Source: Phyllosticta citribraziliensis (lineage: Eukaryota). Taken from it: DNA of 64,000 bases. Of this stretch, positions 2,598 to 34,281 are shown one piece after another; positions within the stretch are counted from its first letter, which is position 1; every line of letters begins with the position of its first letter. Location: the NCBI RefSeq assembly GCF_038025025.1, contig NW_027117340.1, forward strand, positions 124,001 to 188,000, given 5' to 3'. The notes below the pieces were generated by a model that searched no databases, was not told the origin of the DNA, and worked only from the letters and a program-made list of their open reading frames with translations. A program made the position numbers and the translations under genes.

Positions 2598-4149
2598 CTA
2601 CTTCGCAGCGACGCCGTTGCCAGCGCCATTGTGAGCAGCGCCGTCCTGAATCTTGAGCGCCTTGACCCCGCGAGCGAGAATTTCGTCGACCTCGTCCTTG
2701 TGCTTGCTAAAGTTGTCGACCAGGTTGTCCCACATGGCCGGCTCGTGTTCGTGCAAATTTGGGCTCTTCCACGCGTAGTCGGTGATGGTGAACGGGCGGC
2801 TGGACTCAAACATAAAGGCGATGCTGCCTTTGGAGATTTGGATCTGGGGCTGCTCCTCGGCGCTGGCGCCGCGGAACTGCTCGTAAGCGACGCCGTGCGG
2901 CACCATGCCGCACTCGAAGCTGATGCTGCCGGGCTCGAAGCCGTCGCTGCGGCCGCCGTAGACGCCGTAGATGAGGCCCATGAGCTCCGACGCGACGTTG
3001 CGGTGGTAGTACGGCGGACGGTACGTGTGGCTGGCGACGTCCCAGCGGGGGCTGAAGATGAGAAAGTCGGCCAGAGGCGCGGCCGGGTCTCGCGAGCGCG
3101 CAGTCAGCACGCAGAAGATGGACGGGTCGATGTGGTCGACGCTGATGGAGCCCACGTTGACAAACTTGGTCAAGTCGTACTTGTACGGCACATAGTTGCC
3201 GTGCCAGGCCACCACGTCGAACGGGCAGTGGTTTTGCCGCGACGCGAAGAACTTGCCGCCCATCTTGTACGTGATGCCCCAAGGGGCTGCGTCGCCCGTG
3301 CTGCGGTACGCCGCCTTGGGATGCAAGAAATCGCGCACGTTGGCGAGTCCGTTGGCCCCCAGTGGCCCCAGCTCTGGCAGGTCCCAGTGCGATCCCCAGA
3401 TTTCGAGAATGTAACCCCGCGTGGGTCCGTCAACGGACACGCGGATGCGCTGACCTCGTTGGATCACGCAGATTTCGCCCGGCTGCACATACAGCGGCCC
3501 GAACTCCGTCTCAATGTCGAGCGCGCCTTGCTGCGGGACGATGAGCATTTCGCCATCACTGTTGACGAACGCGGTGTTATCCATGCTCTTGTTGGCCACG
3601 TAGACGTGCGTCGCGAGGCCCTCGCGCAGGGTGGGGTCTCCGCTGCCGGCGATGGTGCGCAGACCGCGGACAAAGTCCGTCTCCTCGGAGGGAACATCAA
3701 TGGGACGCCAGGCTAGCTGTGTGGGCGAGATGTGCACGCGGGGATTGATTGTGAGAAAGTTCGCCTCGGTATCAGGGTTATCGGGCAGGTCAGTCTGAAT
3801 TGTCAGTCGGATTCTCCATCAAAAGCGGTCTACTCACAAAGCCCTGATGCGCCACGGCCGGCCTCGCTCGATACAGGTATGAGCGCTTGTTCAATTGGCG
3901 CGATGCCGTAAAGGCGGTACCCGTCATTTGTTCGGCATAGAGCCCAAAGCGTACAGCGCGTGGGTTGTTTTGGCCGCGCGGAATGGTGCCAGGAACCGCC
4001 TCCGACTCGAAGCTGTTGCCAAAGCCGGACTGATATTCGTACGGATCATTCTTGCGAGTCGCAAATGACTGGATTGAGCCATCCTTTTGGGTCTCTGCCC
4101 AGTGGAAGATGTCCTGGTACTCGGTGGGGTTGCTCAGCTGTGCGGGCAT
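2598..4149 (-). CDS. Homogentisate 1,2-dioxygenase-family enzyme (non-canonical paralog), 502 aa; exons 4149-3838, 3794-2598
   Basis: HGD-family motifs: YQSGFGN, GLYAEQ..GTAFTA, NSDGEMLIVPQQG, LPELGPLGANGLAN.RDF, PFDVVAWHGNYVPYKYDL, DHIDPSIFCVLT, RPPYYHRN..SE, PHG, AFMFES. A 43-nt GTGAGT...CTGAC...CAG intron joins the two ORF-track pieces in frame. Confidence 0.95.
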
Positions 4150-4518
4150 GATTGCGGTGGTTTCGAGGTCTCAAGGTGTCGAGATTTGAGTAACAAAGAC
4201 GAAGAGAGAGCCCGCTGGCTCAATTCTAATATAGTGGAAGCCATGGCTGCAGCGGCAGTTGTTGTGAAGAGCGAGGGTGGTGAATGCGGGGTACTGATCT
4301 GATCTTGGTGAGACTTGGCGGCGCCAACTGACGTGCAGGCGACGAGATGGTTACACGCGCGCGCTGACCAAATGTTGACTAAACTCATTCTCAGCCCTTG
4401 CTTGACGATTGACTTTGCCAACCAGCCTTGCGACTCGCCCAGCCCGTCTCTCTACGCTCGGTTAAAAGGGTCCCGAACACATCGCCAACTCTGTCGCTAT
4501 CAGCTCGAGTCTCTTGCC

Positions 4519-5487
4519 ATGACGCTGCTCCCTCCGAGCCAACCGAACCAATCCTTCGTCACAGTCTCTCCAATCGCTGGCGGTTACTTTACCCTTCCCG
4601 AGCGCTTCTTCGTTAGTCCTGCGCTTCACGATGCGAGACACTTCAAGCCGTCGCTGTCGTTTTTGGTAACTCACTCCGGCTGTGAGCTTTTGAATCATGG
4701 CAAACGCGCCTCGTCTCCGTCATTCCGCAAGCCCTTCAAACTGCTATTCGACCTTGGCTTGAGGAGTTCCAAAGACCGCTACACGCCACCACAGCAAGCA
4801 CACTTGGAAACCCGTCAGCCATACCGACTGGCTGGCGTCGCCGAGCAGCTCAGGTCTGGCGGAGTTGACCCTGCAAGCATTGATGTCGTCGTGTTGAGCC
4901 ATGTCCACTATGACCACCATGGGGATCCGGAAGACTTTCCCAATGCTCACTTCATCGTTGGTCCAGGTTCTCTCGACGTGCTCCGGAACGGCGTGGCAGC
5001 CAAAGGCTCACACCAGCATTTTGACCCCAACCTGTTGCCCGAAGACCGCACAGAGGAGCTTCCAAGCACGCTACCAGTCGCCAATGAGTTTAGCAACAAA
5101 AGCCACTGGAACTGGCAACCGATTGGCCCGTTTCCCGCCGCGCTCGATCTCGTAGGCGATGGCTCGATGTATGTAGTAGACGCTCCAGGCCATCTCCCTG
5201 GACATTTGAACCTCCTGTGTCGAACCGGACCGTGGTCGTGGATGTGTTTGGCAGGCGACGCCTTTCACGACCGTCGAATCTTGACCGGAGAAAAGGACAT
5301 TGGCACATGGGAGGACGAGGCCGGGCATACCAATTGCATCCACTTTGACAAGAAGGCGGCCATGGAGTCGATTGAAAGACTGCGCAAGCTGATGGAGGAT
5401 AAAAACGTCGAGGTCGTCGCTGGCCACGATGAGGAGTGGCTCGTAGAGAATGAAGATTTGTTGTTCGGCGCCGACGAGAATCTGTGA
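4519..5487 (+). CDS. Metallo-beta-lactamase-fold hydrolase (AHL-lactonase/fungal lactamase-like), 322 aa, intronless
   Basis: HxHxDH motif SHVHYDHHG plus LLFDLG, DAPGHLPGH, LAGDAFH and VAGHD metal-ligand motifs. The first in-frame ATG is at 4519. Confidence 0.9.
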   Translation: MTLLPPSQPNQSFVTVSPIAGGYFTLPERFFVSPALHDARHFKPSLSFLVTHSGCELLNHGKRASSPSFRKPFKLLFDLGLRSSKDRYTPPQQAHLETRQPYRLAGVAEQLRSGGVDPASIDVVVLSHVHYDHHGDPEDFPNAHFIVGPGSLDVLRNGVAAKGSHQHFDPNLLPEDRTEELPSTLPVANEFSNKSHWNWQPIGPFPAALDLVGDGSMYVVDAPGHLPGHLNLLCRTGPWSWMCLAGDAFHDRRILTGEKDIGTWEDEAGHTNCIHFDKKAAMESIERLRKLMEDKNVEVVAGHDEEWLVENEDLLFGADENL

Positions 5488-5618
5488 TGCCGGTCTGGAG
5501 GACAAGCCCCACGTGATGCCAGGTACAAAGTTACTTTTGAAGCTAGACGTCACCTCGCCCCTCTTCGTGCTGGGCTGATCTCGGACAGGCAACATACCCT
5601 CTTCATACAACCGACAAA

Positions 5619-6636
5619 ATGTCCTTCTCGTACGACACCATTGGATTCATCGGGGTGGGAAGCATGGGCCAACACATGGCTGACAATCTGCTCCAAAAGT
5701 TGGAAAGCGTACGGCTCTACGTCCACGACGTTTCTCGGGCCCCCGTCGATGCTTTGTGCTCGAAGTATCCGGAAAGAGTCGTGGCCTGCGCCAATTCCCA
5801 ACAGGTGGCAGAACACTCGGTAGTATCTTGCGCCGCTTCAGCAGCCAGGTGAACTGAACTCGTGCCTTCAGTCTCTAATCTTGTCCATGGTACCAGAAGG
5901 CTCGCACGTCCGCGACGTATACCTGGATCCCTCGACTGGCATTCTCGTCGCCGATGCGTCCAACAAGATACTGATAGACTGCTCAACGATCGATGCCGCA
6001 ACGTCTCTTGCTGTACGCGAGCAGACGCGATCGCTCTATCCCACCGCGTCCTTTTACGACGCTCCGGTATCTGGCGGGGTTCTCGGTGCGCAGCGGGCCA
6101 CGCTCACATTCATGCTTGGCTGCTCGCCCACAGATCCCAACATGCCGCTCCTGCGGGATCTGCTGGGGAAAATGGGATCCAACATCTTTGCCTGCGGCGG
6201 ACCGTCTCTGGGACTGGTTGCAAAGGCGTGCAACAATTACTGCAGCGGGCTCATTGCCATTGCGACGTCGGAAGCCATGAACATTGGCATGGCGGCGGGA
6301 ATGGATCCACGGCTCCTGAAGCAGATTTTCGACTCCAGTACCGCTCAGAGCACCATTCTAGACAAGTGGTGTCCGGTTCCGGGAATCCTGCCCGAGGTCC
6401 CCAGCAGCAATGGCTACAAGGGGGGTTTCAAGGTGCAATTGATGCGCAAGGACTTTGGCCTGGCGGTCGACACGGCCAAACGGCTGGGTGTGCGGCTTGC
6501 ACTGGGAGACGTGGGCTTGGAAACGTACACGGCAGCCATGAACGACCCGCGATGCAGAGACTTGGACTCGAGAGTGGTGTATCGGTTTCTGGGAGGAAAC
6601 GAGGACTGGGAGAAGGATTTTGAAAACGTGGACTGA
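5619..6636 (+). CDS. 3-hydroxyisobutyrate dehydrogenase / beta-hydroxyacid dehydrogenase family, 321 aa; exons 5619-5819, 5872-6636
   Basis: Rossmann motif FIGVGSMGQHMA, IDCSTID, DAPVSGGVLGA..ATLTFM, catalytic Lys in AKACNN, and VPSSNGYKGGF..LMRKD. A 52-nt phase-0 intron links the two ORFs. Confidence 0.92.
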
Positions 6637-7516
6637 GATTCGGCCCCACTCGACAAATACTGCTTTACTCGACGCAAACCTCCGATTCATACAGTCTACC
6701 TAAACCCATTCTTCGCCCGTCTCTGATGCCGACCGGACATAGCATCGACAGCTCTGCCGGTATCTACTTACAAATGTATACCTCGAATCACCGCCACGAG
6801 CCGTTGTCTCGTTAAGTGCCACAGCTGCTGCAAGCAAGCATGCAAGCAAGCAAGCTTCTCTTCACCCCACCTCCTCAGGCGCCCCGCACGCCCTGCTACC
6901 CCACATTTCATCGCGAAAGGGATCCCTGCATGAAGACCATCGATGGCAGCGCGAGCCGAACCCAAGCAACTCTCTGAAGCTCGACAGACTGCGTTTTGCG
7001 CGCCAGCCCCGCCGGCGGCAAGAATTGGCTAAGTGGCAGGATTCTGTCCCGGCGCTGCGGGTCATGATGTCGAGGACTGTGGGGCAGGGCCATGGGTTCC
7101 TTGCGTCGGAAGGGGAGCAATCCGACGTCGGTGGCATGCATGGCGTCAAGCACCGCAGACAGCGATGGGACACCCCTCATCTTTCTCTTTTGCAACTTGC
7201 GGGCGCTGCCGAACACGAACGACTGTGAGGGGCTAGGCTGATTGACGGGTGTAGAAGTAGAACCGCTGCGCTTGTTGGTATTTGTAGCTTACTCGCTTCT
7301 AGGTTTGGTTTTGCATCTGAGGCAGTTTCGTTTGCTTGTGGATAAGAGCTAGGACGATTTCATCTTGGATTGGGAAGCATTGGCTGATTAGTTGACGAGA
7401 GTTTCGCAAGTGTTCTTGCCGCCACCAGCCTACGACATTCGACCACCCGGCTCCGTTGGTCAGACCTGCTATTCACAGTCTTCCGACTCGACACGCCTCA
7501 ACCCACGGCAAACGCA

Positions 7517-8994
7517 ATGCCCATCAAGGACATCACCATCGTCGGCGCCGGGCCGTCAGGCCTGCTCCTGGCCCTCATGCTCCTCCGCAACCCAAACAAC
7601 CCCTCCATCACCCCGCCGCGCATCACCATCATCGAAGCGCTAGACCTGCGCGGCGACACGCGCCCGCGCGCCGCGTACTACGGGCCGAGCGCCGTGCCCG
7701 AGATGATGCGGGCCGGCATCCTCGACGAGATCAAGCGCCGCGGCTACGTGCCGCGGTGGATGACGTGGAAGAAGCTGTGGAGCGCAGAGCGCGCGGCGGC
7801 CGTCAAGGGCACGCCGCGCGAGGCCGAGGGCGGCGCTGAGCTGTTGGGCACGCTGGATTTGGATTGCGGGTGGGATCGGCAGGCGTGCTTGCCGCTCGAT
7901 GCGCTGAGCAGGCTGATTCGGGAGGAGGTCGAGGCCGAGGTGGCTCGGGGCCGTGGTGAGTGCAAAATTCGGTGGTGCGAGAAGGTCGTCGCGATTGGAG
8001 AGGAGGGCGAGAGGGCGTGGGTGGACACCGAGGCGGTCGAGGGGGAGGGAGACGCTCAGGGGGCCGAGAAGCCGCGAAAGCGGTACTACTCCGACTACGT
8101 CGTTGGCTGCGACGGGGCGAGCAGCACAGTCCGCCGTCTGATGTTTGGCGAGAACAACTTCCCAGGCATGACATGGGACAAGCAAATCATAGCAACCAAC
8201 GTGCGGCGCCCCTCCATTCGTCCACGCATCCACTGACACGCCCTAGGTCCACTACGACTTCTCGCGCTGGGGCTACCACGACATCCAATTCTTCATCCAC
8301 CCCGAGCACTGGCACATGGTGGCGCGGCTGACGGCAGGCGAATACTGGCGCGTATCGTACGGCGAGCGCAGCGGCCTCTCGCACGACGAGCTCGTGGCCC
8401 GCTGCCCGGCCAAGTTCGCCGCCATGTTCCCGGGCCACCCCTCCCCCAGCGAGTACAAGATCACCGGCTTCAGCCCGTACAAGGTGCACCAGCGGCTGGC
8501 GCCGGCGATGCGGCGCGGGCGCTTCGTGCTGGCGGCCGACGCCGGGCACGTGTGCAACCCGTTCGGCGGGCTGGGGCTGACGGGCGGCATCGTCGACGTG
8601 GGCGGGCTGTACGACTGCCTCGCGGGCATCCACGAGGGCGTGGCCGACGACGCCATCTTGGATACGTACAGTGATGTGCGACGGCAGAAGTACCTCGATG
8701 TGACGGACCCCGTCAGCCGCGAGAATATTCGGAGGCTGTTTGATCAGGACCCGGAGCAGGCGAGCGAGAAGGATGAGTTTATCAAGCTGATCAATCGGGC
8801 GGCGGCGGATAGGAAGACGCAGGAGGAGCTGAACGACGTAAGTTTCTTCCCCTTTGTTCGTCGTTTGTCCTCTCTTTTGGCATGCGTACACGATGACTGA
8901 CAGCGCCTCGCAGTTCATGCGCGCCATCAAGTACGACTTTACGCAGCACTACAAACGCAGCAGCGGGTCAGGTGCGAGTGCTGAGAAGCTCTAG
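7517..8994 (+). CDS. FAD-dependent aromatic monooxygenase (group A, FAD_binding_3 type), 451 aa; exons 7517-8200, 8247-8837, 8914-8994
   Basis: Fingerprints IVGAGPSG, VVGCDGASSTVRR and FVLAADAGHVCNPFGGLGLTGGIVD. Two introns with CTGAC branch sites close the frame. Confidence 0.92.
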
Positions 8995-10598
8995 ATCCGC
9001 GGCGTTGTATATGCATTAGTATATATCAGCATCTTCTTCCAACATGCCTAGACCGCGTCAAGTCATCCACCATCAACGTGCAACGCGTAGAAACTCGTCG
9101 AAACTGGAGAGTGTTTGGGTCCTGCGAGCCTAGCCACGGCATGAAAACAGCGTGCAGAGCCTGCTTGACCGTCTCAGCAGACGTCGGACGAGGTGGTGAC
9201 ATCATTGCCCAGGTACTTACCATCACCACTCACTCACTTCACGATTCTCCCAGCAACAGCTGTTTCTCGCACGCTGCAGTGCCCCTCTCGAGAGCAGTTC
9301 CTCTCCTTTGCACGCAGACTCCAAGACCACATCCGTGACATTCAAGGAAGTGACGTCGAAACAGAGGTCGTCGTTCGTCGTTCGTGTCGCGCCACCCAGC
9401 CCGCACGCACGCACGTCCCAGCCCTCTCCTCCCCCGGACACGACACGCCACACCACACCACGCCACCCCCTTCCAGCGACCCGACATGTCCCGACGCACC
9501 CGTCCTGCCACACCACCACCTCAATCAGCGCTCCCGACCGTTCCCGACGCGCATGGAAAAGCTGGAGACGAACAGCGGAGCAGACTAGAGACGCGATGAG
9601 TGAAGGAGCTCGTGCGGCAGCGGCGGCGGCGGCGGCGGACACAGACGGGGTGTCTGTCTTTGAGTGTGGATCTTATCTGCGCAGATCGTGTATGCTTCTC
9701 GCACAAAACCATGAAGCAGTCGGCGTGCGGCGTGAGGCTCAGGCGCAAGGAAGGTATGAAAGGAAAGTGCGTGCAGCAACACTACCATCACCATTCACTC
9801 TCCGTCCCTCGTCTTCTACGCCGCCGTTCTGCTAGACATCGTAGGAGTGAGAAGATGGGACGGCAAATAAGGCGGTGATGGTGGTGCTGTATGTAGTTTG
9901 AATTGCCGTTTCAGACTGCGCAGCAGCTGTGCTCGAGTGAGCTGATGCTGGTCCCGTCCTCACTCTGCCCTGTGTCGTGATTGGCCCGACACCGAATACA
10001 TGTAGGCTCTGCTGAGAGTCACGCGAGCGAGGGCTGCGCTGCGCCACACCCAGCCAGCCCTATGCACGCACGCACGCACGCACATTTTCAGCGTGTGCAG
10101 AAATCAGGAGGCGCGCGTGTACTTGCTCGGAGCATATCGGAACGCGTGCGTAGTGTGCTGTCTGTCTGCTGAGGTCCGAGGCCGACGGGACGGGACGGGG
10201 GGACGACGAAAATAGACGATGTGTCGAGTTCGTGCGTGCGTTATCGGTGTGGACTCGCGTGTTGTCGTTGCCGTCGTCTCGTTTGCGCGCGCGTGTGGGG
10301 AGATGCGTGAGTGATGCGCGTGTGAGATGGAATGACGCTGGCTGCTGCGCTGGCTGCGAAGGAAGAAAAGGAGGGAGGGTCGAGGTGCCTTACCGCCCTA
10401 CATATGTACTCTATATAACCACACGCCAAGTACCTACATGACTCTCTGTTCTGCATCAACACACAAACACACGTCTATTGAGAACTTACCTACCTACCTT
10501 ACGCGCACGATCATCATCGACAAACGACCTGCTCCTGTCGGTCAATCAAATCCACACCAAATCCAAACAAACCACAAACCACAAACCACACCACCAAC

Positions 10599-21077: not shown

Positions 21078-24000
21078 TCAACCCACCATCTCCTTCTCCT
21101 TCTTCTCCACTTTCTCACCCACACCCACACCACCCTCCTCCTCATCACCATCCCCATCAACATCAACGGCGCCAACAAACTTCAGCGCCGCCAAGTGCGC
21201 CGGATCCAGCGACGCAACCGACGAATCGGTATTCGGCTGGCCCAGGCGCTTCGACTCCTGCTGGCCGGGAGCGCACGACGCCTCCGCCTGCGTCTCGTGG
21301 TGGGGCGTAGACAGCGTCGATTGAGTCGACCGCGTCAAGCCATCGGCCGCGGCAGCAGCAGCACCACCACCACTGCTGCTCGCCTCCTTCTCCTTCTCCT
21401 TCTCCTTGGCACTTACACTTCCACTCGCACTGCCACTCGCACTCTGCGCCACCGTCGCCGTCTGGGTCGTAGAAACAGTGACAGTTCCCGACGGCGTAGC
21501 GTCCGCAGCCGCAGCATCGCCATCAGCAGCGCGACCGCGGCGCGAAGGCGGGCGAGAGCCCGGACACGACGACGCGCGCGGGCGCACCGAGCGGCGCGAG
21601 CCCGCGGCACTGGCGTTGGCCGTCGACAGGGGGACGAGGCGCGTGGTGCTGTTGGCGCTGGCGCTGGTCGTGTACGTCGAGGAGCGGCGGCTGCTGCGCG
21701 CGGCGGCGTTGCGGCTGGCCGTGGTGCTGGGTCTGCCCCTGGCGCTGGCGGCGCTGGGCGCAGTGTGAGGAGGAGCATGGACGAGGTTGGACGGCTCGGT
21801 CGTCGAAGAGGTCATGGTTGGGACGATGACTGTCACCGGCACCTTGGTCGGCGTCAGGTGGTGGAGCTTTGCAGGAGAGGCGCTCTTGTCCCTCTCGTCC
21901 ATGTGGATGTCGACATCGACCTCGCGGACGCGCTCGAGCTCGACCTGTCGCTGGACATGATTGCCGTCACGAAACACCAGCTCTTCCCTCTCCCTCTCCC
22001 GGACAACCAAGACGCTGTCCCTACCATTGCTGCCCCTCCTCTTCTCCCTCTCCTTCTCCGCCGCCGCCGCCATCAGCAAGCTGCGGCCGAGACTGAACCA
22101 AAAGCTCTTCAACTTCTCGAGCATGCGCTTGGTGCGAAACTCGACGCGCGACATGCCCAATCCGCCGGGGCCGCCAGGTCCGTCGACGCCCCTGTTTGCA
22201 CTCTGTCCAGCTGCGGCTGCAACGGCAGGCTGCACGGCCGACGTGGTGCCAAAGCGAGGACGGCTCATGACCACGCCCGCGTCGCCGGCTCCAGAAATGC
22301 TGCTGCTGTCGCCAGTCTTGCCACCACCACGGAGCGGAAGGGGCAACGAAATGGGAATCGGCAACAGCGAGAGCGTACGACCGCTGCGAGTAGAGGGCTC
22401 CTCCGTCGTGACGGCTGAAGGCGAATCGCGACGCGTCGACGGCGAAAGAGTAGGTAGTGGACTCAGGGGCGTGAGGTAGGACGTGCTTGCACCGGCACCG
22501 CCAGCGGACGAGCCACCACCAAGCGGAATGAGGCTTGACGCCGTGTCAGTCACTGGAGTGGGATTCTTGCTGTTGGCATTGTTGCCATTCTTTGCGGAAG
22601 TTGCGGCGATGGAAGGCCCGGCGCCGGCCAGCCTCAAACGCAAACCAGTCAGCCGCTTCCTCAGACCACCCGCGCCCTTGGTCTGCGAGCTGTCGTCGGA
22701 GAAGAAGCTCCGCACGTCGTCAATATTGATGTTGAAGCGACCCTGCGGAGGAGTGAGGCCCGTAGTGGGATATCGATCACCAGGGTCGACCGGACGCGTG
22801 TCTTCGAGCGAGATGGACGGATGCGTCAACGTCGGATTGGGAGACAAGGTGCGGCGAGCCAAATAGACGTGCGAGTGCGAGTGATTCGGGTCCGAAGGGT
22901 TGCAGACATTGTGTGAATGAGAATGGTGCGAATGGTGCCGATGCGACGACTTGATGCCCATTCCCATTTTGCGCGTCAGCGTTCCCAGCACACTCGTGCA
23001 AGGCTTGCTGGGACCAGCTGCCGACTGCCTGCGGCTGTTTTGGCGACTGTGCGTGTTTTTGAAGGTGTCGTGTGTCGACGTACTGTCGGCGAGCGTGCTG
23101 TGCGACTGCGCCGTGACCGTCGTCGTAGGATTCACATCACCATGGACGCCAATCGCATCGGCCGCATTCTTGATTGTCGCATTCGTAAGGCTGTACTCGG
23201 AAGCAGATGACGATGCCAGCGTCGAGCGATCGCCATCGCGGACGTGAGCTTTGATGGGGAAGCTAATGTCAATGTCAATGCCCGAGGGAAACTTGACATT
23301 GGCCAGGTCCCAAGCAGAGCCGTCGTCCGACTTTTTGGCGGTGTCAATCTCGTTACTGCGGCGGAGGTGGACCGGGAGCGGGGCCTCGAGCTCTGCCATG
23401 GGCGTCTTGCGTCTGGCCTTTTTGTCGTCATCGTCGGCCATGGAAATTTTGCGCTCCTCCTGAGCACTCTTGTAAGAGGCCGACGAACTGCTCATTTCCT
23501 CGACACGATGGCAGCGAAGCACGTGGCCATCTCCTTTCTCCCTCTTTTCCTTTTCGCGCATGGTGAGCTCCTCGTAAATGTCATCGTCAACCAACACGAG
23601 CGAAGTCTTGCCCGGCAGCGGCCGCAGCCTCCGCGACGACTTCATGTTGTTCAAGAGTCCAGGTCGCTCGCCGACATGGCGCACGTCTTCGACATCAGCC
23701 TTGAGCTCATCATCTTCAATCATGTCCTCCACATCCTCGTCGACATTCTCGGAGCTGCGGTACTTTTTGAGCGACGGAATCAGCTCAGAAAGGCGCGCAG
23801 TGAGACCGGCCAGGGACGGAACAGAAAGCCTCTCCACCTCCTCAAGCACCTCTTCTGGGGAATATGGCCTAGAAATGTCGCGGGCAGACATGGCCGTTTC
23901 GCTGCGCATAGACAGCACCTCCGCCTCCGTCTGCTGCTCGGGCTCGGGCTCAGGCTCGGGCTCGGGCTCCTTTTCAACCTCAACATCTGGTTCAGGCTTG

Positions 24001-26885
24001 GCCACCTCGGCCGTCTCGGTGACAGGAGTCTTGGGACGAAAGTCGGGTACGCGGTCCGTCGAATCCAAGCTGGCAAAGAAGCTGCGGTACTTTTCGCGAA
24101 TGGGACCCAGCGAGGCTGGCCGCTCTCGCAGCAACTCAATCTCGACGTCAAAATCGGGTGGAACACCGTCCAGCGACAACCTACCGCCGTCTCCAAACGC
24201 TTCGCTCAACTTCTCCAAAAGGTCAATCTGGCTAAAGTGCATGGACGGAATCAGTCTCGACTCGACAAGCGCAGTCTTGGGTCGCTTGGGTGATTTGAAG
24301 ACTGGCGCAGACGCTCGAACTGATGGCGTGCGAGACACGAACAGCTCCTCGATCGAGGTTCGGCGCGCGGAGCTCCGTCCAGGCAGAGGAAATTTGAAGC
24401 TCATGGAGGTGCGCCGGCCCAGATCAACCGAGCTTCCAACGTCTGTAGCAGTAGCGGAGCCGCGAGAGTATGGAAACTTGAAGTTTTGAGACGCTCGAGT
24501 CGATGCTCGTTTGCTGAGGTCCGAAAAGCTCTCCTCGCACGATTCCTCCTTGACGTCCGACAGCTGGCTTGGGTAGCGCGGAGGGTTCGACAGGCGAAGA
24601 TCTTTGGCAATCGAGATGGTCTCGTTCATCAGTGAGCCGCGCGACGGGTACTCCTCATCGGCTTGGAAAGCCGTGTTGTTGACCGTCTGTCGCCTCAGAG
24701 GCCAAACCAAGTGCGTCGTCGTGTTGCTCTCACGGGAGCTGAAAGATTTGGCCGGAATGGACGCCGGGCTGCTCGACTGCTGGGTGGCGCTCACTGGCGT
24801 ACCCTCATCGCTGTACATGACCGGACTGGGATCTGGAGTGTCATACTGAATGTCAGGCTGTGGCGTGAGAGCCTTCGCAGGCTGAGCTGGAAGGTCAACC
24901 ACAACGGGCGGAGAGATCTCTACATGGATCCTGCATTCTGGTGCTTGGTCCTCGACCTGGCCAGAACCGAGCGTGGGCGCAGAAAATCTAGCCTCGACGT
25001 CGACTTTTGGACTCTTGGGAACTGACAAAGACTTGGCCCGTCCAAAAAGTGAACGTCCAGTAGACTCCTCCGTAACAACCACGTCTTCATCAGGACTGAC
25101 ATTTTCAGGGGTAATGTCCAACTTGACCTGAGGCTCCGAGTCGTCGACGCTGAAGCTCTCAGTCGAGTCGATCGACCCCTGCGTGACTGGGACAGAGTAT
25201 CTGACGTGAAAATCGACAGCCGAAGCACGATTGTCGTCCTGCGGTCCAGACGAACGAGTCTCGGTGCTGTGACGCAATGGGGCATCGTCGCCATCCGACG
25301 AGGCAACACCGGGGCCGACTTCTGGCTGTTCCTGTGCCGTTGACATGGTGCCATCAGATGACACGCTGGGTGCGGGACTGGACGGAATTCGGATAGGTTC
25401 CACCTTGGCTTCCACGGTAATTGTCGTTTCGTTACCGTTCGTGGTTGACGACGGTTCGATGACAGACAAAATCATCTCTCTGGTAATTCTCTTGGGAACC
25501 GGCTCGGCAGGCAACTCGACCGCCTCGCGCGGAGGTGTGGGCACGGGTGAGCCAGGCAGCTCGAATATTTCAGGTCCGAGTTCCTCGATGGGAGTCACTG
25601 GATTTGCAGGAGTCGAACTTGAGGACGATCCGCCACGGCCTTCAAGAATGTTCTTGACATGGTTGACGAAGCCGCCAGGTATCACGCTCGCCGCCTCTGC
25701 GGGGGCCTGACTGGGACTCTTTGGTTCTTCAACGGCGAAATGCTCACTGTAGTCGTAGTAGATGAGCTCCTCGCTATCCGCGTGCTCATCGACTGGCGAA
25801 TTGGGGGTGTTGACCGTGTGCGGGCTGTTTGGTTGGATCGTAACTTGGGCCTCATGTTGAAGCTTGGGAGTCTGAGGCGCCAGTGAAGCTCCCGAAGACG
25901 GAATATCAGACTCTGTGCTCTGACTGAGCGAGGTGCCTGGTCGTATGGCCATCGGCTTCAGCAGCATAGGGTGCGATCCGCCCGGAACAGGACGACGGCG
26001 GGGCACAGCATCATTGATGGGTGAAACACCCATAATGGTTGGAGTCGATCGGTTGAAGTGAGCATGCTGATATGGCATGTGGGCCAATTCGTGCGGCAAA
26101 GGCGAGAGTTGGATTGCGCCCTGGAACGCTGCAGGCAAAGGCTGCATTTGGCCCATCTCGAGTGGCATCATGGGCGACACCGGAGAGTTTCTGGGTCTAG
26201 GAATCGACGAATGGTGGCGAGGCCTTCTGGACTGAAGACCGGTGACGTCGCTCATTGCAGGTGACGGAGAGCGATATCCCGGACGCTTCAAGCGAGTAGG
26301 GTAGCGGTAGGGAGAGCGAGGCCGCTGACCAAGTTCAGGGTGCCTGAGAGAGGCAAAAGAGCGAGGCTTGGACAGCTTGTGGGCCGGTGCGTAGTTTGAA
26401 GTCAGGGAGAACGAGCGGCCATCTTTGGAAAGACGAGCAGGAGGAACGAGTGGCGAAGCTCCCGGAATGTTCATCTGCGTGGGAGACAATGTATCTGGAA
26501 GGAAAACGGGGGCATTGAGACTGTTCGTCATGGAACGTCTGGGAGCCGAGGAGGATGAGGGACGCGGGTGATGACTCGACATGCCATTCGTAGTTTGCGT
26601 ATGAGAAGAGCTGACAGATAGACGCGAAGAGGCATTGTTGCTGCGTCGACGATGGGCTGGACGCATGTGCGAGGTCCTGGACCCCTTTCCAAACGTCATG
26701 CCAGCAATGTCCCCGAGCTCGGTTGAGGTACGAAGCATGCTCATGACGCCAGTCGATGAAAGCAGGTCTGATTGTGCCGAATGTGCGGCCTGCTGTCTGC
26801 TGCGTTTGTCTCTAGAGCTGACCGAGGCGTTGGAGGCCCGGCTCGCGCGTCCGGAGACGTTGGGGTCGAGTTCGGTGAGAGGCAT
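21078..26885 (-). CDS. Large Ser/Pro/Arg-rich, largely disordered protein of unknown function, 1935 aa, single ORF
   Basis: 5.8-kb uninterrupted ORF with coding-like codon bias. Short motif islands (RPRSPYRYPTRLKRPGYR, YYDYSEHF, DPGDRYPTTGL, DVRSFFSDDSS, GMSRVEFR..RMLEKLKSFWF) lie between low-complexity tracts. Confidence 0.85.
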   Translation of the reverse strand: MPLTELDPNVSGRASRASNASVSSRDKRSRQQAAHSAQSDLLSSTGVMSMLRTSTELGDIAGMTFGKGSRTSHMRPAHRRRSNNASSRLSVSSSHTQTTNGMSSHHPRPSSSSAPRRSMTNSLNAPVFLPDTLSPTQMNIPGASPLVPPARLSKDGRSFSLTSNYAPAHKLSKPRSFASLRHPELGQRPRSPYRYPTRLKRPGYRSPSPAMSDVTGLQSRRPRHHSSIPRPRNSPVSPMMPLEMGQMQPLPAAFQGAIQLSPLPHELAHMPYQHAHFNRSTPTIMGVSPINDAVPRRRPVPGGSHPMLLKPMAIRPGTSLSQSTESDIPSSGASLAPQTPKLQHEAQVTIQPNSPHTVNTPNSPVDEHADSEELIYYDYSEHFAVEEPKSPSQAPAEAASVIPGGFVNHVKNILEGRGGSSSSSTPANPVTPIEELGPEIFELPGSPVPTPPREAVELPAEPVPKRITREMILSVIEPSSTTNGNETTITVEAKVEPIRIPSSPAPSVSSDGTMSTAQEQPEVGPGVASSDGDDAPLRHSTETRSSGPQDDNRASAVDFHVRYSVPVTQGSIDSTESFSVDDSEPQVKLDITPENVSPDEDVVVTEESTGRSLFGRAKSLSVPKSPKVDVEARFSAPTLGSGQVEDQAPECRIHVEISPPVVVDLPAQPAKALTPQPDIQYDTPDPSPVMYSDEGTPVSATQQSSSPASIPAKSFSSRESNTTTHLVWPLRRQTVNNTAFQADEEYPSRGSLMNETISIAKDLRLSNPPRYPSQLSDVKEESCEESFSDLSKRASTRASQNFKFPYSRGSATATDVGSSVDLGRRTSMSFKFPLPGRSSARRTSIEELFVSRTPSVRASAPVFKSPKRPKTALVESRLIPSMHFSQIDLLEKLSEAFGDGGRLSLDGVPPDFDVEIELLRERPASLGPIREKYRSFFASLDSTDRVPDFRPKTPVTETAEVAKPEPDVEVEKEPEPEPEPEPEQQTEAEVLSMRSETAMSARDISRPYSPEEVLEEVERLSVPSLAGLTARLSELIPSLKKYRSSENVDEDVEDMIEDDELKADVEDVRHVGERPGLLNNMKSSRRLRPLPGKTSLVLVDDDIYEELTMREKEKREKGDGHVLRCHRVEEMSSSSASYKSAQEERKISMADDDDKKARRKTPMAELEAPLPVHLRRSNEIDTAKKSDDGSAWDLANVKFPSGIDIDISFPIKAHVRDGDRSTLASSSASEYSLTNATIKNAADAIGVHGDVNPTTTVTAQSHSTLADSTSTHDTFKNTHSRQNSRRQSAAGPSKPCTSVLGTLTRKMGMGIKSSHRHHSHHSHSHNVCNPSDPNHSHSHVYLARRTLSPNPTLTHPSISLEDTRPVDPGDRYPTTGLTPPQGRFNINIDDVRSFFSDDSSQTKGAGGLRKRLTGLRLRLAGAGPSIAATSAKNGNNANSKNPTPVTDTASSLIPLGGGSSAGGAGASTSYLTPLSPLPTLSPSTRRDSPSAVTTEEPSTRSGRTLSLLPIPISLPLPLRGGGKTGDSSSISGAGDAGVVMSRPRFGTTSAVQPAVAAAAGQSANRGVDGPGGPGGLGMSRVEFRTKRMLEKLKSFWFSLGRSLLMAAAAEKEREKRRGSNGRDSVLVVREREREELVFRDGNHVQRQVELERVREVDVDIHMDERDKSASPAKLHHLTPTKVPVTVIVPTMTSSTTEPSNLVHAPPHTAPSAASARGRPSTTASRNAAARSSRRSSTYTTSASANSTTRLVPLSTANASAAGSRRSVRPRASSCPGSRPPSRRGRAADGDAAAADATPSGTVTVSTTQTATVAQSASGSASGSVSAKEKEKEKEASSSGGGAAAAAADGLTRSTQSTLSTPHHETQAEASCAPGQQESKRLGQPNTDSSVASLDPAHLAALKFVGAVDVDGDGDEEEGGVGVGEKVEKKEKEMVG

Positions 26886-27415
26886 GGTGCCTTGCCAACT
26901 GCGCGGGTATCCAATTCAAAATCAAAACGCCGCAACGAGGTGACTGGAACGAGCGACGAAAGGTAACGAGTGAGAGTGGATGGTGTTGTGTCGAATGCCA
27001 GGGCGAGAACACGAGGAGGTCGTAGCATCCCAATGAAGAAGGCGTGATCTCAAACTAACGCAAGTCAGCTGCGGCCTCACTCGTGTCATCTGGAGCAGTC
27101 GCAAAGCGAGGCGGCTGAGATCGGGAAGGACTCCACGGTGTTGCGAGATGGAGGAAGGGTCTACCGTCACTCAAAGTCATCTACAAACAAACCGTCTACA
27201 TTTCCGCGCAAGGATGCTACAAGAACCGAACCAGCTTTTGTTCCTTTGCTCGGGCCCTCAAGAATGTTCAGACGCCGTCTAACCCCGGGATGTGAAGTTT
27301 GGATTACAGAAAAACTCGTCGATTCATAGACACGAGAAATGAGACGCCGCTACCAGTAGGAAGGGGTATCCAAAAGATGTCGACATGTAAATAAACGCCG
27401 GATACTACTCGTTGA

Positions 27416-30647: not shown

Positions 30648-33600
30648 TTACTCCGTGCCTTCCTTCTCCTCGTCGATCTTGGCTGGACGGCCAGACGTCC
30701 CGGCACTCAGAGGTCCGAGGCCTTGCGATGCTGCCGCCTCCGTCTTCGCAACCTTTGCCGGTTGAGTGGGACGGGGCTTGTCGAGCGCCGATGTATGATT
30801 TGACTCGTTTTGCGCCAGGTGCGACTGAGCAAGAGGCGACGCACTGGCCTTGCTGGCCTTGTCGCTGCCAGCCGACTGGACAGAATGTTGAGAAGTTGTT
30901 CGAGGCGATACACGCCCGTTCTGCCTTTTGTCAGACATTGTGACTCTGTAAAGACGTCGATCACTTTACCTGCTTGGCCCAGCGGAGCCCACAGCTATTG
31001 CAAAGATCTCTGTTGCCACTGGGTCCTCTCCGCCACTCGGGCGTCACCATGGTGTGGCAATTGGCACAGTCTTTTTGGAGCTGGCCGGCTCCCTTTCTCC
31101 GCTTGCGTTTCTTCTTGGCCGCCAGTAGGCTCTGCACTTCTTCGGCGAGCAGTCGGTTGCGCTTCTCCATTTGCCGGAGCTCATATTGCCAGCTCGTGCT
31201 CCTCGTCGTTCGGAGTTCGTCGAACAAGTTTTCTTCTGCGGCCAGACTGGCGTCTTGGTGGCCCAGTTTGAGCCCGTTTTGCCCGGCATATGTCATGGCA
31301 AATCCATCCGTCGTCTGGTATTTGCTGAGGGTGGTCATGTGCGAGCTGACAGTCTGACCAGACGCCGTGCCGGGAGTGCTTCCTGCACCACCGACCGAAT
31401 TCGTCGTCGCTACTGAGCTGCCAGAGTCGCGCTCGTGTTTGGGGTAAATGCTCGGTCGGTTGTTGTTGGTGGAGCCACCGCGCGTAAACTTGAGAAGCCT
31501 GGTCTGCGCAACGAGGAACGTAGGCTTCTGTCCCTCTTGGGCATCTCCTGGATACAATGTCGTGAACGCTTGAAGAACCTGGCCTCTCCGGTTGATCATT
31601 TCGTGCTTGACCGAAGCCTTTTTGCCGGTTCGTGCAATCTCGAGGATTCGGTAAAATTCTTGCTTGGACTCTTGCCGCATGAACGATTGAATGCTCGTTC
31701 CGATGAGATCCTCGGGTTGTCGGTCGAGGAGGGATCTCACGTTGGAGGCAACGAACAAGAACATGCCAGACGTGGACATTTTCGTCCACAATTCATTGTC
31801 TCCAATGCCCCCGGCCGCTTCAATGTCGCGCCTGCTCAAGGCGTAGACGGGCCTTTCTCGTCCAACAAGGATGATGCACTTGCGCCCTTTTCCTTGTTCC
31901 GTGTGCAGGGATCCATGTCCTTCGAACCACATGTAGCCGCTAAGCTTTCGCCTGATGCGAAACACGACGTTGACCGACGAGCCAGTGGAGGTGTCCTTGA
32001 GCTCGCGAGTGACGGGGACGATGTCGGACGGGTGGCAGACGGACGAGAGAGCGGTGCCAACCAGTTCCGACGCTTCGTACTCCAAAACCTTTGCCGCAGA
32101 TGGCGACAGATAAAGGAACAGACCCTTGAGAGACAGCACATGGATGACGTCGTCGGTGTTTTCGAGTAATGCCTTATCCCACATGCGTTTAGAAGCGTCG
32201 CTTTCTCCATTCACCAACGTCTCCAGTAGCGCGGAAACGTCGTCGCGCGGAATAGTCTGGCCCAGATCCATGTTGTGACTTGTGTCAGGCTTATTGAAAA
32301 CATATCTTGGCAAGCCCATAGACCGCTGGTAGTTGATGTTGTACGAGCCATCTGCAACAGGGATTAGCAACCGTCCAAGGCGGGGCAGACTTAGCGCACA
32401 CACCGGGATTCTTGTTCGTCACCGAATTCGGCTGCTCGACCAGATCGACCTGGAAGCCCACAAAAAACTTGACGACCTCGCTGTCGTCCCAGGTGATGGG
32501 AATCATGGTTAGCAGATTCATGAATGGCTGGCCTCCTCTTCTATAGTTGATGAGGCTGACTTGTGCTTCTTTGCGGCCGTTGATCATGTTTTTGAGGTAG
32601 AGGACGGCGTCGTCCTCGGTGTATTTGCGCTTTATTCCAGCCTCGACCTTGCCGTCAGGCGACTGGAGAAATCGACAATTCCGTCCCAGAATCATGTGCC
32701 TCGAGTAGCCAGTCAGGCGCTCAAAATTTTCGGAGCAGTATACGATGGGAATGTCGTCCTTGTCCGCGTCGCACACGACGAACGCGCACGAAAGATCCAC
32801 GGAGCCAATGTTAATCTCAGGCTTTGGTCTCGTAGCCACTCTCATGAGAACTCCGAGCATGTCGAATCCTGTTGATGAATAGACATTTTTGAACTGTGTC
32901 TGCATGTGTGGCCGGTTGTGCATCGTTGACGGGAACCCGCCTGTTGTTGGAATCAGTCGTTGGTCGTTGTGCTGTTGTTGGTAGTCCGCCGTCATACCTG
33001 TTGAAGCCCAGGACATTTGCGTAGGAGGTTCTGGACCGAATGGAGCATTCGAGGTGGGGGCGTCTGGTAATGTCTGCGGCTGAGACGTTGCGGGTGGCGG
33101 CCTTGACGAATGTGCGCCCTTGGGGACGCTCTGTTCTCTCGAATCCCTTCTGGGCAAGTCTGGAGACATGCTGTTGTGTTCTGAGCCGACGTTAAGGTCC
33201 ATGCTTCCAGGTCCAGCGCTCCCCCCAGGGTCTTGCAAGGCTGCCTGCATCGAGTCGTTCATGTCCTGGCCAATGGGAGAGCCCATCATGGGCGACGCGA
33301 ATTGAGGACCTGAAAACATGTTCATCGGCGTACCGTCACCCGGCATCATGGAGTTGAGGGTCGGATCCGCCATGTCCATGGACATGGGCATTCCAGACTG
33401 GACGTATGGGCTGGTCATGTCCATGTCGAGTCCTGCGGGAGAGGCGTAGGAGCTCGGAGGGCCCATGGACGTGTAGGTTTGCTGTTGACTCTGATATCCC
33501 GTGTCGATGTTCAAGTGGCCTGCGGAGGGTCTGCGGCGCTGGAAAGGGGCGGTTCTTCGATAGGCGTCGCCGACGCTCTCCATTGACGGCGCCGTGGTCG

Positions 33601-33880
33601 CGGGGTCGAACTGGTACTGGTCCAACTGGCCCGAAGCTTGACCGCTGAATTCCATCATCGAGACCCTCCGCAGGTCGGCCTCTAGCTCGGATTGGCGGGT
33701 GTTGGAGCCATACTGGACGGGCACGCTCTGGCGGCGTGCCACCTTGGAGTTTTGGTTGACAATGTCGTCGAGAGATTGGCCGCCGACGATGCTGGGGCTG
33801 ATGCCGTCTTGGTTCATTGAGCTTCCGCCCATGATGGTGTCCCCGGTTCCGCCCTGATCGATCGGATAATAACCGTTCAT
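30648..33880 (-). CDS. wc-1: White collar-1 blue-light photoreceptor / GATA transcription factor, 1024 aa; exons 33880-32998, 32940-32404, 32351-30970, 30920-30648
   Basis: LOV domain with photoactive Cys ([10 protein letters not shown]), two further PAS domains ([33 protein letters not shown]), basic [15 protein letters not shown] finger [32 protein letters not shown]. Confidence 0.97.
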
Positions 33881-34281
33881 CGCTGCGCTGCGAGTGGGAG
33901 ATCGATAGAGCTGGGATGCGAACGACCGAGGATCGATGGAGATCACCCGCTGGTCCGCCGCATGAAGGATCGGAGCGGGCCGTACGGCCAGAGTGATCGC
34001 GTGCAGGAGGTTTTTGGGAGGAGTGGCCGGGGTACACGGGCGTGCGGGCGGTTGTGAGATCTCGAGGTTTTTGCGGGGCGTAGGAGGTTCTCAGAGTTAT
34101 CTTGTCGACCGTCTGGCGGAGGTTCGGCTTGCGCGTTGGGTAGGAGTGACCTAACGCCCAACACGGCTTAGCACTAGGGTTGCCGCGGCCTTTCCAACTT
34201 CTGCCGTGTGCCGTCCCGGCCTTGCCATGGCCAGCCCAGGGCAGACAGGCTTCAAGCTATCAATTCAACTCCACCGCCGCC

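Follow-up and report, generated by a model that had tools for sequence, protein, structure and literature searches.

The DNA analysed here, hereafter the window, is a stretch of 64,000 nucleotides from the fungus Phyllosticta citribraziliensis (assembly GCF_038025025.1, contig NW_027117340.1, positions 124,001 to 188,000 of the forward strand); its positions are counted from its first letter. Between 2598 and 8994 it carries four catabolic genes, one coding for a dioxygenase of the homogentisate 1,2-dioxygenase (HGD) fold, and three coding for a hydrolase of the metallo-β-lactamase (MBL) fold, a β-hydroxyacid dehydrogenase and a flavin monooxygenase. We found that the dioxygenase is likely a methoxyhydroquinone 1,2-dioxygenase of the MhdA type, and that its association with the three other genes is a recurrent minority module in fungi, stable in Botryosphaeriales. 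Ring cleavage by such an enzyme is known already, and the newness lies in the linked trio of MBL, dehydrogenase and monooxygenase genes. The features of the locus are listed below.

2598..4149, minus strand: MhdA-clade HGD-fold dioxygenase, 502 aa; exons 4149-3838 and 3794-2598, 43-nt intron 3837-3795.
4150..4518: divergent spacer between the dioxygenase and MBL genes, 369 bp.
4519..5487, plus strand: MBL-fold hydrolase, 322 aa, intronless, lactonase/esterase-like.
5523..5588, plus strand: GT..AG intron of 66 nt (GTACAA...CTGAT...CAG) within the spacer between the MBL and dehydrogenase genes, spliced in run X1, with a matching joint in run X3.
5619..6636, plus strand: β-hydroxyacid dehydrogenase, 3-hydroxyisobutyrate dehydrogenase (HIBADH)-like, about 322 aa; one intron, most likely 5823-5871.
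7517..8994, plus strand: group A flavin monooxygenase of the PnpA/HspB family, 451 aa; introns 8201-8246 and 8838-8913.

Families and coordinates of the four genes are those of the original prediction, and the intergenic spacers (369, 131 and 880 bp in locus order) include, to the base, the two of 369 and 131 bp that it had given. Pfam domains are HgmA_N/C for the dioxygenase, PF00753 for the MBL, PF03446 and PF14833 for the dehydrogenase and PF01494 for the monooxygenase; ESM Atlas added nothing beyond family names. Splicing was read from joints in the assembled contigs of public runs, which we guess to be RNA although none is recorded as such; these contigs are unstranded, and their depth cannot rank the genes. 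All four genes were confirmed to be intact and spliced. The dioxygenase intron was spliced in 4/4 runs, the first monooxygenase intron in 3/4 and the second, exactly, in 2/4, while the ends of the dehydrogenase intron were hinted at by runs X3 and X2. The spliced dioxygenase model equals database protein P0242 over 502/502 residues, and the nearest named homologues of the locus proteins come from Phyllosticta (88-96% identity). Run contigs span positions 4445-7775, including the gap between the dehydrogenase and monooxygenase genes. The divergent spacer is presumed to be a shared promoter of the dioxygenase and MBL genes. As an intron sits inside the 131-bp spacer, either the dehydrogenase promoter lies inside the MBL gene or a transcript is shared, and the MBL and dehydrogenase may thus be on one common transcript. 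This 66-nt intron was spliced in runs from two organisms.

Three HGD copies exist in the genome, in the window and on contigs C7 and C1, which rules out that the locus copy is the only one. The C7 copy lies head-to-head with fahA and beside a cytochrome P450 gene, and is the canonical hmgA; the separate hmgA-fahA locus looked for elsewhere in the genome is therefore present. In the window itself, none of the canonical tyrosine-cluster partners was detected, as had been claimed: no fahA match and no Zn2Cys6 motif were found in it or in the 20 kb upstream, and Pfam detected no hppD- or maiA-type domain in its 48 long frames (short exons could escape). The C1 copy (L009:4500-5980; G000:C1 about 1,567,500-1,568,980) adjoins genes for a GH3 glycosidase and a sugar transporter. 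It is fast-evolving (branch 1.18) and retains His365 and the iron ligands, with an altered loop after the Glu ligand.

The window dioxygenase is 48% identical to the HmgA encoded on C7, and 70-91% identical to 120 database proteins whose named members are spread across Pezizomycotina. In a tree including the C7 and C1 copies and 14 bacterial HGDs, this MhdA clade was separated with a support of 100 on a branch of 1.03. The iron ligands His368, Glu374 and His404 are retained (human His335, Glu341 and His371 by alignment), as is His325, at the position of human His292. Glu398 occupies the position of human His365, for which a role in proton transfer has been proposed (10.64898/2026.06.02.729205; PMC4019311; these papers, like those below, are cited for the accessible part of their text). 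This Glu was found in 89/89 aligned clade members (P0242 and 88 of the 120 matches), and in all 49 readable sequences among 65 metagenome loci retrieved with a clade-specific motif. His365 is retained in the C7 and C1 copies and in 76/80 bacterial HGDs (the other 4 gave no reading), these being the best 80 of at least 600 relatives. In the genome contigs database, the clade motif gave 0 matches. A fahA gene was found beside the fungal clade gene at 0/65 loci, many of them short, versus 51/80 bacterial loci. With the TIGR01015 hmgA model, the window protein scored 551 bits, above the cut-off of 510.75, and the C7 copy 670 bits; the model fails to separate HGD paralogues. A bacterial origin of the clade was considered and rejected, the best 80 bacterial relatives being only 45-50% identical and having His365. 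No bacterial operon from which function could be read was thus found. The best structural match, PDB 9pz4 (a 496-aa protein that bears the name homogentisate 1,2-dioxygenase in its deposition), resembles the clade more than human HGD does, with Gln in place of His365.

In Aspergillus niger, MhdA (NRRL3_10111) cleaves methoxyhydroquinone in vitro, and its deletion leads to methoxyhydroquinone accumulation; the protein acts in vanillate catabolism, is 50.8% identical to HmgA and has a mass of 55.5 kDa with its tag (PMC8336404). Five Aspergillus members of the clade have masses of 54.3-54.8 kDa. Penicillium chrysogenum protein 147053 was grouped with MhdA among methoxyhydroquinone dioxygenases (Fig. 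S4 of PMC8336404), a grouping taken here from the leaf order in the PDF text. By eye, its sequence (Table S5 of the same paper) is that of P0099, except for a stretch of 8 residues, and the Glu is present. The window dioxygenase is 75% identical to P0099, and 75-79% identical to Eurotiales clade proteins. Moreover, the neighbourhood formed by mhdA, the esterase gene omeA and a major facilitator superfamily (MFS) transporter gene recurs in 4 locus groups of the clade, and the esterase alone in a fifth. The placement of 147053 in the MhdA group, the identity to P0099 and these neighbourhoods together make it likely that the window dioxygenase is of the MhdA type. Table S2 of FAMeDB contains six HGD-domain entries, three of which are methoxyhydroquinone dioxygenases (PMC13094099). 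The initial view that the ring cleavage was undescribed, and its substrate wholly unknown, is not supported, since methoxyhydroquinone is the substrate of the A. niger enzyme in the clade to which the protein belongs (PMC8336404). That the HGD paralogue cleaves a substituted hydroquinone is kept as most likely.

For the monooxygenase (query P0279), the best PDB matches were PnpA (6ain, E 9e-55) and HspB (7da9, E 9e-50), the next match being at 1e-13. At the sequence level it is thereby assigned to the PnpA/HspB family, well set off from the remaining group A enzymes. Both PnpA and HspB act by para-ipso attack, the former releasing nitrite and the latter a succinyl group. The database name TerC is borne by a match 61% identical to the window enzyme; TerC hydroxylates the carboxyl-bearing carbon (ipso) with loss of CO2, and is inactive towards the 6-methoxy analogue (PMC8453496). 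The suggestion that this family yields hydroquinones is supported. No second close copy of the monooxygenase was found in the genome. Just beyond its stop codon, a minus-strand intron of 60 nt (about 9161-9220) was spliced in 2 runs, which points to a transcript overlapping the end of the gene in antisense.

The MBL has its metal motifs at 128 (HxHxDH), 224 (GHLPGH), 246 (GDAFH) and 302 (GHD), all kept across 14 aligned homologues, and no signal peptide was seen by eye. Its nearest characterised relatives are acyl-homoserine lactone (AHL) lactonases and 4-pyridoxolactonase, all weak matches under the cut-off. Compared with the AHL lactonases AiiA and AttM, HxHxDH and the distal His, Asp and His metal ligands are present. 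The score is 67.5 bits versus an AttM cut-off of 390, and a His replaces the AHL-lactonase Tyr, which in the AHL lactonase motif stands three residues after the bridging Asp. The dehydrogenase starts at its Rossmann motif, and so has no mitochondrial leader; it retains DAPVSGG and the catalytic Lys of KxxNN. It falls below the TIGR01692 cut-off (its Saccharata orthologue scores 244 versus 292 bits), and belongs to a clade apart from the copy on contig C5 (support 97), grouping with the enzyme of metagenome locus L014. The C5 copy, a HIBADH of the housekeeping type, bears a targeting-like leader. Judged by these features, the window enzyme is not the canonical mitochondrial 3-hydroxyisobutyrate dehydrogenase.

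An omeA match is absent from the window and the 20 kb upstream, so that the A. niger arrangement is not reproduced here. An OmeA-like esterase gene is found on C7 (G000:C7:1116206-1117166), its product being 40-49% identical to esterases encoded beside MhdA-clade genes. The MBL therefore need not replace OmeA, and the idea that it is an obligatory substitute is weakened. The genome also has several genes of the iron-containing alcohol dehydrogenase (Fe-ADH) family, none assigned as maleylacetate reductase.

We searched for the gene set in other genomes, and found its linkage conserved. In named genomes, gene order was approximated by the order of accessions. The HGD and MBL accessions directly follow one another in 4 other Phyllosticta species, in Saccharata proteae and in 3 Diplodia species. 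Among 1.84 billion protein representatives, the best match of the dehydrogenase is Saccharata KAF2085409, next to the MBL (410) and the HGD (411). The monooxygenase is 3 accessions from the HGD in P. capitalensis, the three Diplodia species and Neofusicoccum ribis, and 2 in Botryosphaeria dothidea and Macrophomina, that is 2-3 accessions in 7 Botryosphaeriales species overall. In the Mytilinidiales Lophium and Mytilinidion, the monooxygenase is 7-8 accessions from the HGD with the MBL between them, all three thus within 8, and in Glonium MBL and monooxygenase are within 3. In Lithohypha (Eurotiomycetes) and Sporothrix (Sordariomycetes), HGD and monooxygenase have adjacent accession numbers. 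They are 5 accessions apart in Halenospora (Leotiomycetes), where the FAMeDB OmeA orthologue is 3 from the HGD, and 14 apart on the same 58-kb contig in Pseudogymnoascus. Such pairs occur in four fungal classes.

The 65 metagenome loci were reduced to 49 groups once near-copies were collapsed, 11 of which are well flanked (at least 6 kb on either side). At L014, the four families are present in another order and orientation, together with two P450 genes and a transcription factor gene; its trio, 33-45% identical to that of the window, surrounds a Eurotiales MhdA-clade gene. At L067 and L070, HGD and monooxygenase genes are head-to-head, with MFS, P450 and Zn2Cys6 genes. The P450s of L014 and L067 had no informative PDB match, and show no close relationship with the C7 P450. 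In the family tree, linked monooxygenases are dispersed, with at least 10 label changes, and a Halenospora/Lachnellula/Aureobasidium subclade was recovered in both the HGD and the monooxygenase trees (support 98 and 99). In these two trees, the label "unlinked" stands for linkage unknown rather than absence, and Saccharata is tagged as monooxygenase-linked in the HGD tree, though only its HGD, MBL and dehydrogenase are shown. The recurrence in other genomes indicates a gene grouping beyond chance, and the module appears to have been put together more than once from paralogues.

Two further observations concern the surroundings of clade genes. At L020:4376-5150, what seems to be a decayed MBL gene of the L014 type is flanked by MFS and omeA-like genes, in a Eurotiales-type mhdA locus. 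The tRNA ligase gene TRL1 adjoins the clade gene in 11/49 groups (loci L013, L018, L024-L026, L032, L035, L042, L043, L059, L063 and L064), with THOC3 nearby in some. In the P. citribraziliensis genome, TRL1 and THOC3 flank the canonical hmgA-fahA-P450 locus (L005:1754-8150, G000:C7). Since TRL1 is found beside either paralogue, the two HGD paralogues may once have shared a locus.

As to the function of the module, we tentatively propose a feeder route, in which the trio would make methoxy- or dimethoxyhydroquinone from a guaiacyl or syringyl phenol with an oxygenated acyl side chain, for use by the MhdA-type dioxygenase. Its observed part consists of the gene structures, their splicing, clade membership, active-site residues and linkage across genomes. 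Opening of the methoxy- (or dimethoxy-) hydroquinone ring by the dioxygenase is likely, judging by orthology, and the steps that would precede it we infer from family chemistry. The monooxygenase would oxygenate the ring carbon para to the phenolic hydroxyl and expel the acyl substituent, as do PnpA, HspB and TerC; on a guaiacyl phenol, such a para-ipso attack would give methoxyhydroquinone, that is the MhdA substrate. An aryl ketone of the hydroxypropiovanillone type would yield a hydroquinone ester of a hydroxy acid, or both pieces directly. Hydrolysis of the resulting ester or lactone would fall to the MBL, and oxidation of the liberated hydroxy acid, of the 3-hydroxypropionate, glycerate or 4-hydroxybutyrate type, to the dehydrogenase. 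The dioxygenase would then open the hydroquinone ring to a methyl maleylacetate-type product, to be handled by an unlinked reductase and the OmeA-like esterase on C7. The reverse order would also fit, with lactone opening, oxidation to an aryl ketone and HspB-like cleavage. The exact substrate of the cluster is a guess.

Several points weigh against this proposal. The link to MhdA runs via P0099, the A. niger MhdA sequence itself being outside the comparison, and Dothideomycetes members of the clade split into at least two subclades, so that placement in the clade falls short of one-to-one orthology. Most members of the clade are without the trio: the full four-gene set was found in 1/49 metagenome groups (1/11 of the well-flanked ones), and the monooxygenase adjoins the clade gene in 2/49. 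In seven species (Rhizodiscina, Pyrenochaeta DS3sAY3a, Neonectria, Dactylonectria macrodidyma, Exophiala sideris, Cylindrodendrum and Penicillium verhagenii), HGD and monooxygenase matches are on different contigs or distant tags; these matches may be paralogues. The dehydrogenase and MBL of L014 are distant paralogues, not orthologues, which together with the scatter of linked monooxygenases suggests that different clusters may use different substrates. The dehydrogenase gene was directly seen only in the window, Saccharata and L014, and is elsewhere deduced from an accession gap. The putative roles of the three additional genes are drawn from family membership and from the substrate ranges of HspB, PnpA and β-hydroxyacid dehydrogenases. 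Finally, TerC works on an intact lactone without a lactonase (PMC8453496).

The four genes could also represent an alternative enzyme set for the vanillate or syringate route. The monooxygenase would then take over the decarboxylation from VhyA, and the MBL and dehydrogenase would handle a ring-fission product that is lactonised or a methyl ester. TerC, whose name is on the 61% match, is a decarboxylating hydroxylase (PMC8453496), and in Halenospora monooxygenase, HGD and OmeA are within 8 accessions, with no VhyA orthologue in FAMeDB. A role after ring fission would suit an MBL that shares its divergent spacer with the dioxygenase and has γ-lactonases as nearest characterised relatives, and in the gallate pathway a fungal ring-fission product is known to cyclise to a lactone (PMC10832562). 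However, unlinked OmeA-like esterase and Fe-ADH family genes are already present in the genome, so that replacements for the lower steps are not obviously needed, the published route has no step for a β-hydroxyacid dehydrogenase, and VhyA is of the salicylate-hydroxylase type (PMC8336404). We regard this explanation as rather unlikely. Still less probable, in our view, is that the genes are old neighbours without a common pathway, an ordinary mhdA being held in conserved microsynteny with three unrelated catabolic genes. Clade genes do have a stable neighbour without metabolic link, TRL1, seven of the linked species come from one order, and monooxygenase-family paralogues are numerous in each genome. 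Yet the four families recur at L014 in another order and orientation, HGD and monooxygenase are close in four classes and share a subclade in their two trees, and the spacers are very short, one even holding an intron.

In the original prediction, a plant compound of the coumaranone, dihydrocoumarin or benzoxazolinone type would have its lactone or lactam ring opened by the MBL, and the dioxygenase would cleave a homogentisate-like hydroquinone with an alkyl carboxylate. The domain content is compatible with this scheme, the dioxygenase still exceeds the TIGR01015 cut-off (551 versus 511 bits), and benzoxazolinone breakdown requires Mbl1, a fungal enzyme of PF00753 (PMC4726666). Like the window MBL, Mbl1 is a hydrolase with HxHxDH encoded in a fungal catabolic cluster, Fusarium FDB1. 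However, FDB1 has other named partners, an amidase and a dienelactone hydrolase, orthologues of Mbl1 have been reported from few Fusarium species, and the accessible main text makes no mention of homogentisate, monooxygenase or dehydrogenase (PMC4726666). Moreover, the substrate and iron positions checked in the dioxygenase match the MhdA clade, including Glu for His365, and no evidence pointing to coumaranone, dihydrocoumarin or benzoxazolinone turned up, so that we give this scheme little credence. The gene set, the separate hmgA and the hydroquinone logic of the prediction stand; the novelty of the ring cleavage and the lactone or lactam substrates are not supported.

The feeder route that we favour can be set beside known systems. 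At the A. niger mhdA locus, an HGD-fold paralogue of the same clade, about 50% identical to HmgA, also has a hydrolase gene beside it, and in the vanillate-methoxyhydroquinone pathway a flavin monooxygenase also supplies the hydroquinone (PMC8336404). The neighbours there are the type-B carboxylesterase gene omeA and an MFS gene instead of an MBL-fold hydrolase gene, VhyA is salicylate-hydroxylase-like whereas the window monooxygenase is PnpA/HspB-like and linked, and a β-hydroxyacid dehydrogenase has no role in the route as given in the accessible text (PMC8336404). Phanerochaete PcHGD1 and PcHGD2 are HGD-fold 1,2-dioxygenases that cleave lignin-derived methoxy- and dimethoxyhydroquinone, but they come from a basidiomycete, no such cluster is mentioned in the accessible text, and they were compared by description only (PMC13094099, PMC12420386). 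The canonical hmgA-fahA-maiA cluster (PMC3914699) shares dioxygenase fold and iron ligands, whereas the window clade is without fahA at the 65 loci and has Glu for His365. The closest characterised monooxygenases are PnpA, HspB and TerC; in the TerC reaction, the position attacked is para to a ring hydroxyl, and its substituent is lost (PMC8453496). Similarity to them is however moderate, their contexts are nitrophenol, nicotine and polyketide biosynthesis, and the tie to TerC is a database name on a 61% match. In the hap cluster of Pseudomonas fluorescens ACB (4-hydroxyacetophenone), a monooxygenase, an esterase and a hydroquinone dioxygenase act on an aryl ketone. At no step are its protein families known to be those of the window locus, so that this is analogy and not homology.

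Around the locus, the region at 9.0-13 kb of the window yielded no clear coding gene. Downstream of the dioxygenase gene, positions 1300-1950 form a pyrimidine-rich, imperfectly repeated tract, into which contig 1 of run X1 reaches. Genes for a carboxylesterase and an arylsulfotransferase, 8-16 kb upstream of the window, were considered as members (28-34% and 31% identity, respectively, to other clade-locus copies) and left out, desaturase and kinase genes intervening. Further along, an open frame of 1945 codons without Pfam match (21081-26915, minus strand) precedes a gene with PAS and GATA zinc finger domains (30964-34090, minus strand), presumably of the White Collar-1 type. Housekeeping genes of the window include those for SHMT, a metacaspase-type peptidase, ribosomal S2, eIF2A and APC1.

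The methoxyhydroquinone pathway, recently characterised, is one of eight known fungal central ring-opening routes (PMC13094099), and the route by which Aspergilli degrade syringyl units has been described as unknown (PMC12388069). No description of the linked trio was found in the literature searched, few searches being aimed at that combination, and the MBL and HIBADH InterPro codes that were looked up do not occur in the FAMeDB supplement. As a broader and more doubtful conjecture, many ascomycetes might have an intracellular route in which aryl ketones or aryl lactones from lignin are split at their aryl-alkyl bond by an HspB-like flavoenzyme, with release of methoxyhydroquinone for MhdA, the side chain being salvaged by the MBL and a cytosolic dehydrogenase; this would be a second entry, bypassing vanillate. 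Many proteins annotated as homogentisate 1,2-dioxygenases belong to the MhdA clade, and one residue tells them apart. The conserved trio tied to MhdA provides candidates for unassigned steps in the use of lignin phenolics by fungi associated with woody plants, and possibly a C-C-cleaving flavoenzyme for lignin valorisation.

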